Shown piece by piece: positions 37,930-40,881 of a DNA stretch of 64,000 nt. Each line of letters begins with the position of its first letter. Within the stretch, counting starts at the first letter, position 1. The notes beneath the pieces are model-generated. The model was given only the letters and a program-made list of their open reading frames with translations. It made no database searches and was not told the DNA's origin. The stretch lies in NCBI RefSeq assembly GCF_016026235.1, contig NZ_CP065613.1, one strand, 5' to 3'. Made by a program: the position numbers and the translations under genes. Source of the stretch: Escherichia coli. GTDB lineage: Bacteria; Pseudomonadota; Gammaproteobacteria; Enterobacterales; Enterobacteriaceae.

Positions 37930-38010
37930 GACGGATAAGGCGTTTACGCCGCATCCGGCAGTTGTGCACGGATGCCTGATGCGACGCTGACGCGTCTTAT
38001 CATGCCTACA
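37930..38010. repeat. REP elements
   Basis: GTAGGACGGATAAGGCGTTTACGCCGCATCCGGCA... palindromes after yafL. Confidence 0.65.
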
Positions 38011-38104
38011 AATTTGTGCGTTTTTGCGAGCCGCTTTCCCGTTATTCCATCACCTCATTGCCGACCTTTCCTTTTCTTCTTACCGTTGAGAAAAAGGAGT
38101 CGCC

Positions 38105-38602
38105 ATGTCTGAATATCGTCGGTATTACATCAAAGGGGGAACCTGGTTTTTCACGGTTAACCTACGAAATCGTCGAAGCCACCTTCTGACCGCTCAGTTC
38201 CAGATGCTCCGTAACGCCATTATTAACGTTAAGCGAGACAGACCTTTTGAAATTAACGCCTGGGTCGTTTTGCCGGAGCATATGCATTGCATATGGACAT
38301 TACCCGAAAGCGATGATGATTTTTCCTCGCGCTGGCGGGAGATTAAAAAGCAGTTCACCCATGCTTGCGGATTGAATAATATCTGGCAACCGCGTTTTTG
38401 GGAGCATGCCATTCGCAATACCACAGATTACCGACATCATGTTGATTATATTTATATAAATCCAGTGAAACATGGCTGGGTAAAGCAGGTGAGAGATTGG
38501 CCATTCTCAACGTTCCATCGCGATGTGGCGCGAGGGTTATATCCCATTGATTGGGCGGGAGACATAACGGATTTAAATGCTGGCGAGCGTATTATTTTAT
38601 AA
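38105..38602 (+). CDS. rayT: RayT (TnpA-REP) REP-associated tyrosine transposase
   Basis: 165 aa with HxH-type motif (LPEHMHCIW) and Y1 transposase-like C-terminus; flanked on both sides by REP clusters. Confidence 0.8.
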   Translation: MSEYRRYYIKGGTWFFTVNLRNRRSHLLTAQFQMLRNAIINVKRDRPFEINAWVVLPEHMHCIWTLPESDDDFSSRWREIKKQFTHACGLNNIWQPRFWEHAIRNTTDYRHHVDYIYINPVKHGWVKQVRDWPFSTFHRDVARGLYPIDWAGDITDLNAGERIIL

Positions 38603-38604
38603 TT

Positions 38605-38785
38605 GTGCGCTGGTGCCGGATGCGCTTACGCTTATCCGGCCTACAAATCTGTGCCGCATCCGGCAATTGTGCGCGGATGCCTGATGCGACGCTGACGCGT
38701 CTTATCATGCCTACAAATCTGCACTCAACCGTAGGCCGGATAAGGCGTTTACGCCGCATCCGGCAGTTGTGCACCGATGCCGAAT
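38605..38785. repeat. REP/BIME cluster
   Basis: Several REP palindromes in both orientations between rayT and lfhA. Confidence 0.7.
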
Positions 38786-38787
38786 AC

Positions 38788-40881
38788 CTACATCAAGGCC
38801 CCCATAATCTTCAACTCCAGCTCGTCCGGCACTTCGTTATACGACAGCACATGCAGCCCCGGCGCAAACAACCTTGCGTAGCGCGCCAGCAAAGGACGCA
38901 GCTGCGGCGGCACCAGCAGCACCGGATCTTTCCCCGCCGCTTTCATCTGCTCTTTCACCTGTGGCATCGTGCTCTGGAACTGGTTGAGCATATTCGGGTC
39001 CACTGGCACGCTGTCGAGCATCACTTTACCGCCCTGTTGCGCCTGATTCACCACGTTGGTCAGCAGATTTTCCAGCTCATTATTCAGCGTATACACCGTC
39101 AGCTCCTGCTTGCGAACGAACGGATGGGTAATGCTGCGCCGCAGCGCCAGGCGTACATCGGCCGCCAGCAGAATATGATCTTTAGTCACCGCGCTACTGG
39201 CGACCAGCACGGTGGCGATGGTGACGATATCGCGCAGGGAAACGCCTTCGGTCAGTAGTGTGCGGTACACTTTCAGCAACTGGCTGTAATTCAGCGCCGC
39301 GCTTAAGTCTTCTGCCAGGCGCGGTGCCATCGACGACAAACGGTTATGCAACTGTGTGATGTCGTCATAGTTAAACAAATCAGGAATATAGCTGCGTACA
39401 ATCTTATTCACATGGGTGGCAATCACGCTGGCGCTGTCGATCACCTGATACCCCATATTCAGCGCCTTCGCTTTCTGCGCAGGCTGGATCCAGGTCACCG
39501 GCATCCCGTACGCCGGGTCGTTCCCCAGCACGCCGTCAATCTCGCCGTAGGTTTCGCTGGAGGGCAGGGCCATCAGTTTATCCGCCGGAATATCCGCTTC
39601 ATCAGCCTTAATACCGTTGATGAAAATGGCGTACTGGCTCGGCTTAAGGCGGAAGTTTTCCCGAATGCGGATCTCCGGCAGCAGCACGCCGTTACCGTCG
39701 GATATCACCTGCCGTACGCCGCGAATACGCTGGGTGAGCGGGTTGCCCTGCGCTTTGTCCACCAGCGCCACCAGTTTGTAGCCGAGGCTTAAGCTGATGG
39801 GCTCGATCAGCGGAATGGTTTCCCAACTGACCTGTTGCTCGCTGGTTTCAGTGATGGTGCGGGTCAGCGTTTCGAGGCTTTTCTCTTCCGCCTCCGCCGC
39901 CTGCGGGCGTTTGCTCATCCGCCAGCCGGTAAAGCCAAGCAGGGCGCTGAACAGCAAAAACGGCAGGTGCGGCATCCCCGGCACCACCGCCAGCACGAAC
40001 ATGATCCCGGTGGCGGTGTAGAGCACCGACGGGCTTGCCAGCAGCTGGTGGCGCACGTCATGGGCGATATCGCCGTTGTCGCTGACGCGGGTGACGATAA
40101 TCGCCGCCGCCGTGGAGAGCAGCAGGGAAGGGATCTGCGCCACCAGGCCGTCGCCGATGGTCATCAGCACATATTGCTGGAAGGCGGCATCGGCGCTCAG
40201 GTTGTATTTGAAGATCCCGATACAGACGCCGCCGATCAGGTTGATCGCCAGAATCATCATCCCGGCGATAGCATCCCCGCGCACAAATTTCGATGCCCCG
40301 TCCATCGCGCCGTAGAAATCGGCCTCGCTGGCAACATCTTTACGTCGGGTTTGTGCCTGCGCCTGGTTGATCAACCCGGCATTAAGATCGGCGTCAATCG
40401 CCATCTGCTTACCGGGCATCGCATCCAGGGTAAAGCGGGCTGAAACCTCGGAAATACGCTCGGCCCCTTTGGTGACGACGATAAAGTTGATGATCATCAG
40501 GATGATAAACACCACGAAGCCGACGACAAAGTTGCCGCCGATCACCACCTGACCAAACGACTCAATCACCTTACCCGCCGCGCCCGCGCCGAGATGCCCG
40601 TGCAGCAGCACTACGCGCGTGGAGGCGACGTTAAGCGTCAGGCGCATTAAGGTGGTGATCAGCAAAATGGTCGGGAACAGGCTGAATTCCAGCGGTCGTT
40701 TCGCCGACACCGCCACCAGTAGCACCATCACCGCCAGCACAATGTTGAAGGTGAACAGAATATCCAGCAGCGCAGGCGGCAGCGGCAAAATAACCATCGC
40801 CAGAATACAAAGTATTACCAGCGGCACGCCGAGATTGCCGCCGCGCAGCAGCGCGAGGAACGATTTAGTTGTTTTCGCCAT
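38788..40881 (-). CDS. lfhA: Lateral flagellar export apparatus protein FlhA homolog
   Basis: 697 aa, multi-TM N-terminal half plus cytoplasmic domain; FlhA-conserved blocks. Confidence 0.85.
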   Translation of the reverse strand: MAKTTKSFLALLRGGNLGVPLVILCILAMVILPLPPALLDILFTFNIVLAVMVLLVAVSAKRPLEFSLFPTILLITTLMRLTLNVASTRVVLLHGHLGAGAAGKVIESFGQVVIGGNFVVGFVVFIILMIINFIVVTKGAERISEVSARFTLDAMPGKQMAIDADLNAGLINQAQAQTRRKDVASEADFYGAMDGASKFVRGDAIAGMMILAINLIGGVCIGIFKYNLSADAAFQQYVLMTIGDGLVAQIPSLLLSTAAAIIVTRVSDNGDIAHDVRHQLLASPSVLYTATGIMFVLAVVPGMPHLPFLLFSALLGFTGWRMSKRPQAAEAEEKSLETLTRTITETSEQQVSWETIPLIEPISLSLGYKLVALVDKAQGNPLTQRIRGVRQVISDGNGVLLPEIRIRENFRLKPSQYAIFINGIKADEADIPADKLMALPSSETYGEIDGVLGNDPAYGMPVTWIQPAQKAKALNMGYQVIDSASVIATHVNKIVRSYIPDLFNYDDITQLHNRLSSMAPRLAEDLSAALNYSQLLKVYRTLLTEGVSLRDIVTIATVLVASSAVTKDHILLAADVRLALRRSITHPFVRKQELTVYTLNNELENLLTNVVNQAQQGGKVMLDSVPVDPNMLNQFQSTMPQVKEQMKAAGKDPVLLVPPQLRPLLARYARLFAPGLHVLSYNEVPDELELKIMGALM

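Follow-up and report, generated by a model that had tools for sequence, protein, structure and literature searches.

The locus described here lies in a window of 64,000 nucleotides (nt) of Escherichia coli (contig NZ_CP065613.1 of assembly GCF_016026235.1) and is built around rayT, the gene of a transposase associated with repetitive extragenic palindromic (REP) sequences. rayT (also tnpAREP or yafM; 38105-38602, plus strand) is intact and encodes a protein of 165 amino acids (aa), a HUH/Y1 single-strand DNA endonuclease and strand transferase. The gene on its left boundary is yafL (37180-37929, plus strand), coding for an NlpC/P60, C40 peptidase (Pfam NLPC_P60, 3e-33; RefSeq annotation of strain FDAARGOS_943), and that on its right boundary is lfhA (38788-40881, minus strand), an flhA paralogue belonging to the Flag-2 lateral flagellar cluster. 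A first-pass annotation of the window had placed rayT between REP palindromes on both sides over 37930-38790. This is the arrangement that we found, with a REP on the plus strand and an inverted REP (iREP) on the minus strand to the left of the gene, and two iREPs, one REP and fragments to the right; the whole extends over 37926-38791, within 4 bases of the earlier span.

REPs were located by an edit-distance scan of the window and by pattern searches for the y and z2 classes, with 100 dinucleotide shuffles as the null, and were classed after PMC3333891, a 36-nt unit being z2 and a 29-nt unit z1. The comparison with the REP consensus that the earlier annotation had proposed was run, and the palindromes proved to be canonical E. 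coli REPs of the y, z1 and z2 classes. The y REP that adjoins yafL (37926-37959, plus strand) is composed of GTAG and the imperfect hairpin GTAGGACGGATAAGGCGTTTACGCCGCATCCGGC, differs from the local y consensus by one mismatch and folds at -8.9 kcal/mol with GTAG unpaired; its first 32 nt, GTAGGACGGATAAGGCGTTTACGCCGCATCCG, are base for base the oligonucleotide co-crystallised with TnpAREP (PMC3479197). A short (S-type) linker of 14 nt, AGTTGTGCACGGAT (37960-37973), joins this REP to a 36-nt z2 iREP with GTAG on the minus strand (37974-38009), which completes the single bacterial interspersed mosaic element (BIME) of the 5' side, a BIME-2. The TAG stop codon of yafL (37927-37929) is also the TAG of the GTAG foot of this first REP, such that REP edge and gene end overlap.

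The 3' side of rayT holds three full REPs and two fragments. Its first iREP (38615-38644, minus strand) combines a y-type stem with a short z1-like loop (GTAGGCCGGATAAGCGTAAGCGCATCCGGC) and folds at -10.6 kcal/mol (z = -5.4), while the K-12 counterpart is a z2 iREP. There follows the 3' half of a y REP, GCCGCATCCGGC (38653-38664, plus strand), which on comparison by eye is without the 5' half, GTAG included, of the K-12 sequence; the stretch that is missing has TGCCG repeats at its borders. Farther on are a z2 iREP (38679-38714, minus strand) identical to the copy at 37974-38009, a y REP (38731-38764, plus strand) that matches the local y consensus perfectly and folds at -12.1 kcal/mol, and a degenerate iREP remnant, GCCGAATACCTAC (38779-38791, minus strand), with the lfhA stop in its GTAG. 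REP edge and gene end overlap here as well, the TAG of that stop (38788-38790, minus strand) being the TAG of the GTAG foot. The linkers measure 14 nt at 37960-37973 and 38665-38678 and 16 nt at 38715-38730. BIME-2 elements are defined by a short linker and frequently occur in tandem (PMC3333891), and it is this combination, y and z2 units in inverse orientation across a short linker, that stands next to rayT. Seven units were folded as single-stranded DNA, and in each the GTAG is unpaired (GTTG in the copy at the lfgE deletion junction described below) and the stem is interrupted at the AA/GC position, with energies of -8.5 to -12.7 kcal/mol and z-scores of -2.8 to -5.4. The 5' BIME is conserved in strains K-12, A32 and EDL933, and the number of REPs on the 3' side differs by strain, at 3 in the window, 4 in K-12, 11 in A32 and 2 in EDL933.

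The rayT leader (38010-38104, plus strand) carries an AAGGAG Shine-Dalgarno sequence 6 nt ahead of the ATG, and a combined promoter and terminator scan of 37800-38900 returned no terminators. RayT gives a full-length alignment to PDB 4ER8 (TnpArep of E. coli MG1655; E=4e-110), the structure determined by Messing et al. 2012 (PMC3479197), and scores 176.3 bits against the NCBIfam equivalog NF047646, REP_Tyr_transpos (cutoff 80). With residues as named in PMC3479197, the HUH motif H59-M60-H61 and the catalytic Y115 are kept, as are the clade-specific metal ligands N119, H123 and E161 and the REP-hairpin contacts R78, K82 and R97; a C-terminal extension of ~25 aa brings the protein to its end at residue 165. 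Every residue named by Messing et al. is thus present in the window's RayT. Given 92% identity to the assayed K-12 enzyme, the conserved R78/K82/R97 and an identical substrate REP, we infer that this RayT would bind its single-stranded cognate REP and cleave it at C^T.

The first-pass annotation had called the region a rayT REPtron, a name borne out both by the protein matches (4ER8, E=4e-110; NCBIfam, 176 bits) and by the order yafL-BIME-rayT-BIMEs-lfhA, which is the published arrangement (PMC3333891, PMC3479197). We assign a probability of about 0.93 to the reading of the region as the REPtron of the E. coli chromosome, a unit present in single copy and inherited vertically, in which a domesticated IS200/IS605-like Y1 (HUH) RayT/TnpAREP lies between yafL and lfhA with one 5' BIME-2 and a strain-variable 3' BIME cluster. 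The layout, locus and frequency of this unit are already known, its locus, architecture, enzyme structure and population distribution having been published from 2010 to 2021. Ton-Hoang et al. (online 2011, Nucleic Acids Research (NAR) 2012; PMC3333891) described the structure and coined the term REPtron; they reported that the 5' side "invariably" has a single BIME and the 3' side a variable number, that seven B2 strains show precise loss of rayT, and that 24 strains, all but two of them in clade B1, carry hicAB in place of the whole REPtron. The published two-thirds frequency and population picture recur in our survey of 5426 complete E. coli genomes: rayT is found in 3574 of them (66%), at a median of 1 and a maximum of 2 places per genome, and the match at the yafL/lfhA junction is chromosomal in nearly every genome. 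Both the hicAB replacement and the variant with no rayT between yafL and lfhA occur among the matches listed. We considered plasmid-borne rayT as evidence of mobility and rejected it; the plasmid copies among the matches listed sit on large plasmids of laboratory K-12 strains with yafL also present, and they are taken as captured chromosomal segments.

The mechanism that we propose for this allele is carried over from the K-12 enzyme (PMC3333891, PMC3479197). RayT would act as a monomer on single-stranded DNA, would bind the REP hairpin through its bulge and 5' GTAG foot, and would cut at C^T, the sites including TGCC^TGAT and GGCC^TAC, which flank iREPs, as well as positions in the linkers and others at a distance. 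Cleavage would proceed through a 5'-phosphotyrosine at Y115, H59/H61 holding the metal, and rejoining of the strands would reshuffle and amplify BIMEs in trans; binding of REPs, their cleavage and the recombination of BIME fragments have been recorded for K-12 RayT in vitro (PMC3333891). The rayT element itself would not move as a unit, and therefore any spread of REPs would have to occur in trans. Residues 153-165, which follow G152, are expected to form a C-terminal tail that folds into the active site and autoinhibits the enzyme, and an autoinhibited state is what the TnpAREP crystal structure captured (PMC3479197). The REPs right after the stops of yafL, rayT and lfhA are probably also ordinary 3'-end hairpins acting as partial terminators and mRNA stabilisers. 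This second, regulatory role is likely, and compatible with the first, because REPs stand immediately 3' of all three genes and because a preprint favours a function of REPs in 3' untranslated regions, where they would terminate transcription partially and stabilise mRNA (bioRxiv 10.64898/2026.03.23.713779).

Several points weigh against this reading. The scan of 37800-38900 found no sigma-70 consensus promoter for rayT. Pfam returned nothing for RayT at its default threshold, Y1_Tnp remaining below threshold at 15.2 bits vs a cutoff of 23 (E=10), so that it is 4ER8 and NCBIfam that support the family assignment. RayT differs from the K-12 protein at 13 residues, four of which (V154I, F157L, S158N and S165L) fall in the tail, residues 153-165 (window 38561-38599; Fisher p = 0.011), where E161 is unchanged, and five substitutions (K91N, K107T, S130R, F157L and S158N) are absent from all three other RayT alleles compared. 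Catalytic activity of the window's allele would be taken over from the K-12 enzyme, and to our knowledge mobilisation of REPs in vivo by E. coli RayT has no direct demonstration. Strains that are without rayT have similar numbers of REPs (PMC3333891).

We think it rather unlikely, on balance, that the REPs beside rayT are only regulatory 3'-end hairpins (terminators, mRNA stabilisers, gyrase or integration host factor (IHF) sites) lying next to an autoinhibited relic, with an adjacency of no catalytic consequence. Such a view draws on the position of the REPs, which begin in or just past the stops of yafL, rayT and lfhA, on the finding that REP325 is a partial terminator and stabiliser and not a nucleoid organiser (bioRxiv 10.64898/2026.03.23.713779), on the similar REP numbers with and without rayT (PMC3333891), on the autoinhibited crystal structure (PMC3479197) and on the fact that the nearest allele, that of O157:H7 EDL933, is a pseudogene (W99*). 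The window's rayT, however, is intact, appears to be under purifying selection and keeps all catalytic residues, the K-12 enzyme cleaves and recombines BIMEs in vitro (PMC3333891), and the catalytic and regulatory roles are not mutually exclusive. An autonomous insertion sequence (IS) of IS200/IS605 type with the flanking hairpins as its ends would have a similar architecture, namely a Y1 transposase gene between subterminal hairpins with 5' guide-like tetranucleotides, but the idea is barely credible for a gene with one copy per genome in 3574 genomes and a yafL/lfhA junction match that is chromosomal in nearly every genome; the plasmid copies listed carry yafL too, as captured chromosomal segments would, and the same REPs occur at 6 further loci of the window without rayT. 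Finally, the y-z2 pairs could be genes of naRNA4-type nucleoid-associated RNAs that assist HU in chromosome condensation, since the Rfam model RF02564 scores 75-83 bits, above its gathering threshold of 59.5, at three of them: 34600-34677, 37929-38006 (75.4 bits) and 45200-45277 (range 75.4-82.6). A match to naRNA4 shows only that a sequence is a BIME, because the model was built from one (REP325) and should match any y-z2 pair; it appears to recognise BIME-2 units. Moreover, REP325/naRNA4 has no measurable effect on nucleoid compaction (bioRxiv 10.64898/2026.03.23.713779), and what speaks for such RNAs here is a sequence match, which leaves this option improbable.

The REPs around rayT belong to classes that are dispersed through the genome, as identical y and z2 copies are present at 34.6, 45.2 and 62.8 kb. 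The earlier annotation had counted at least eight recurrences of REPs or BIMEs in the window; the edit-distance scan of the whole window gave 15 full REPs at 8 loci (34597-34731, 37926-38009, 38615-38764, 45197-45280, 53847-53943, 61921-61949, 62753-62786 and 63616-63651), all of them intergenic and all to the right of 34.6 kb. Chance accounts for 0.00 matches per 100 dinucleotide shuffles with the y and z2 patterns and for 0 matches in 5 shuffles with the edit-distance scan. All but one of the 5426 complete E. coli genomes (5425) matched a query that included REPs, the median being at least 28 places per genome. Away from rayT, the BIME between lpcA and yafJ (34597-34731) is made up of a y REP, a z2 iREP and a y REP, is conserved in K-12 and A32 and scores 79.6 bits with naRNA4. 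A BIME-2 of a z2 REP and a y iREP (45197-45280; 82.6 bits with naRNA4), conserved in A32, occupies the divergent intergenic space between a FliM/FliN-family switch gene and the sigma-54 regulator gene (lafK) of Flag-2. BIME-1 elements hold y and z1 once each, across a long L linker that carries an IHF site. A probable BIME-1 (53847-53943), likewise conserved in A32, consists of a y iREP, a 34-nt L linker with the IHF-like sequence ATTCAATACATTG and a z1 REP, and lies at the right edge of an AT-rich cargo block; ATTCAATACATTG is one mismatch away from WATCAANNNNTTR, and the strict regular expression had no match in this linker. A single y REP (62753-62786, plus strand), conserved in A32, lies between lfgF and lfgG, and a z2-like REP (63616-63651, minus strand) between lfgG and lfgH. 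At the lfgG-lfgH site A32 has another, longer GC-rich palindromic repeat of the type CCCTCTCCC...GGGAGAGGG, so that different repeat families occupy one intergenic slot.

Four z2 REPs (at 34645, 37974, 38679 and 45197) are 100% identical over 36 nt, all with GTAGGCATGAT at a place where the z2 consensus presumably has GTAGGCCTGAT. All seven y REPs of the window (at 34597, 34698, 37926, 38731, 45247, 53847 and 62753) carry the loop variant GCGTTTACGC; in A32 and K-12 their orthologues frequently show GCGTTCACGC. The uniform GCGTTTACGC loop possibly stems from a C-to-T change in the exposed hairpin loop or from homogenisation within the lineage.

The rayT allele itself is divergent. It shares 90.4% nt and 92.2% aa identity with K-12, with 33 synonymous and 13 non-synonymous codon differences, and the ratio of non-synonymous to synonymous substitution rates (dN/dS), roughly estimated from these codon counts at near 0.1, indicates purifying selection. 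Among complete E. coli genomes the allele is common to FDAARGOS_943 only, and the closest rayT outside the lineage is that of O157:H7 EDL933 (95.8% nt), the pseudogene already mentioned, in which W99* is an internal stop. Identity to K-12 is 98-100% in most 250-column alignment intervals left of ~37.5 kb, with three dips to 95.6-97.2%, and is 87-92% across the 3' part of yafL and rayT, 74% in the 3' BIME and 92-97% in lfhA; taken by gene, identity left of yafL is 98-99%. Synonymous differences from K-12 are several times as dense at rayT (33 in 166 codons) as in lpcA, yafJ and dpaA. Over 10 kb, no other complete genome is more than 94% identical to the divergent Flag-2 region. From this profile, the REPtron lies at the edge of a divergent block that runs on into Flag-2. 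The differences in this copy of rayT are variation inside a known kind and leave its classification unchanged.

The first-pass annotation had also reported a REP at an lfgE deletion junction, and a REP is indeed present at the lfgD/lfgF junction (61921-61949). The deletion was mapped against A32, a strain with an intact Flag-2 cluster. The A32 order is lfgD, a BIME of four REPs (z1, y, z2, y), lfgE. In the window a z1 iREP gives way directly to the final 20 codons of lfgE, and the junction reads GCTTATCAGGCC on its left and AACACCAAAG on its right. The A32 source sequences are GCTTATCAGGCCTACATG in the REP and AACTATCAGGCCAACACC in lfgE, and because the two share the 9-mer TATCAGGCC at the junction, the crossover is confined to that 9-mer (window 61938-61946), which lies in the 3' arm of the z1 REP. 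Relative to A32, 1351 bp were lost between lfgD and lfgF (61200-62010), a stretch with three REPs and nearly the whole of the lateral flagellar hook gene, lfgE. The resulting chimeric z1 REP (61921-61949, minus strand) has the foot GTTG, not GTAG. Among the 1279 genomes in which this part of Flag-2 is present, the junction occurs in 1, that of FDAARGOS_943, and is therefore private to the lineage; in the genomes listed for the junction query the right-hand match starts at one and the same base. We conclude that a REP took part in the lfgE deletion as a microhomology partner. Beside this case, the copy number of the REPs 3' of rayT is also variable among strains.

The most likely and simplest route for the lfgE deletion is replication slippage, or other illegitimate recombination, across the hairpin-rich BIME. 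A nick by RayT might instead have started it: the z1 iREP would be cut at the type II site GGCC^TAC, and the freed ...TATCAGGCC-3'OH would pair with the lfgE 9-mer and prime synthesis or be joined. The right limit of the crossover, after GGCC at 61946, is exactly the published iREP-II cleavage position (PMC3333891), and an intact rayT lies 23 kb away in the same strain. The lfgE partner, however, reads GGCC-AAC and not C^T, so that a two-cut strand transfer is unlikely; nine nucleotides of identity with a hairpin cluster between the repeats are enough for RecA-independent slippage, and one event cannot separate the two models. An origin by a RayT nick therefore seems to us a poor prospect. A still bolder proposal, for which we hold out very little expectation, would take the lfgE deletion as an in vivo footprint of RayT and suppose that the divergent tail (V154I, F157L, S158N, S165L) loosens self-inhibition, making such events more frequent in this lineage.

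An AT-rich block at ~52270-53800 (GC 0.30-0.36) is abutted by the REP pair at 53847-53943, as the earlier annotation had stated in placing a REP beside an AT-rich insert. We considered the block as a REP-mediated insert and rejected this, the block and the BIME-1 being at the same place in A32. The block falls in the flag-2 cargo region VR1 (PMC6993521), and the BIME-1 at 53847-53943 appears from this comparison to be ordinary, with no link to rearrangement. The earlier idea that REPs contributed to local rearrangements thus stands for the lfgE junction, with its crossover in the 3' arm of a REP, and falls for the AT-rich block, for which A32 has both the BIME-1 and the AT-rich genes. The remaining structural differences that we saw were IS insertions and the absence of dinJ-yafQ from A32, and the edit-distance scan of the window found no REPs at those sites. 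The dinJ-yafQ toxin-antitoxin pair (36429-36970) is present in the window and in K-12, between dpaA and yafL.

The window is part of the E. coli chromosome and has 99.9% identity to strain FDAARGOS_943 (NZ_CP065615.1), although the two are not collinear; k-mer and BLAST mapping showed five IS differences between them, namely IS600, IS1, an IS5-family element and two ISEc60 copies that are inserted in one sequence and missing at that site in the other. The gene order is lpcA, yafJ, dpaA, yafQ-dinJ, yafL, rayT and lfhA, followed by the remainder of the Flag-2 lateral flagellar cluster up to the end of the window, and an island with a type VI secretion system (T6SS) and ISs occupies the left side. 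Because the Flag-2 cluster is present, lfhA is full length in the window; in K-12 it is truncated. The two copies of ISEc60 (IS4-like) lie at 57092-58386 and 28003-29298, of which the 57.1-kb copy interrupts the Flag-2 lysine-N-methylase gene. In FDAARGOS_943 an ISEc60 interrupts the neighbouring glycosyltransferase gene instead, and the IS600, IS1 and IS5-family insertions of that strain are absent from the window. Compared with A32, the Flag-2 VR1 glycosyltransferase gene has lost 1 nt at ~54742, and the frameshift splits it into open reading frames at 53955-54767 and 54716-56392. The loss of lfgE, this frameshift and the ISEc60 insertion in the methylase gene together suggest ongoing decay of the lateral flagellar system in this lineage.

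As a REPtron, the window's copy adds nothing new. The mapped lfgE deletion is the only new item, a base-pair-resolved natural case in which a REP arm served as the microhomology partner in a gene-inactivating deletion. In addition, the intact divergent rayT allele, with substitutions clustered in the autoinhibitory tail, offers a convenient natural variant with which to probe how the tail controls activity.

The closest known system is the REPtron of K-12 MG1655 (tnpAREP/rayT/yafM, b0228), with which the window shares the order yafL-rayT-lfhA, a protein of 165 aa, equal catalytic and DNA-contact residues, a single 5' BIME of a y REP and a z2 iREP, the identical 32-nt y REP of the crystal, and y and z2 classes on the 3' side. 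The two differ on that 3' side, which in K-12 runs z2-y-z2-y and in the window runs short-loop iREP, half y REP, z2, y. The K-12 REPtron was reportedly also treated by Nunvar et al. in 2010. For the lfgE deletion the parallel is with Salmonella, where Shyamala, Schneider and Ames are said to have described, in 1990, REP sequences at the join points of duplications; REP homology likewise marks the join point here, but the event is a deletion and the partner is a coding sequence with a chance 9-nt identity and not a second REP. With the IS200/IS605 family (TnpA of IS608 and ISDra2) RayT shares the HUH/Y1 fold and chemistry, single-strand substrates and hairpins with 5' tetranucleotides adjoining the gene; it differs in being monomeric, in its C-terminal autoinhibitory extension, in its single copy at a fixed locus and in its sub-cutoff Pfam Y1_Tnp score, and it would act in trans on hundreds of REPs without mobilising itself. 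Finally, the REPIN-RAYT system of Pseudomonas fluorescens (Bertels and Rainey 2011) likewise pairs a single-copy RAYT with flanking cognate REP doublets, and the 84-nt y-z2 doublet of the window resembles it in folding as one long imperfect hairpin (-24.1 kcal/mol, z = -5.2), whereas the REP sequence families and the RAYT group differ from those of E. coli, whose doublets, unlike those of P. fluorescens, are classed as BIMEs and are tandemly amplified.

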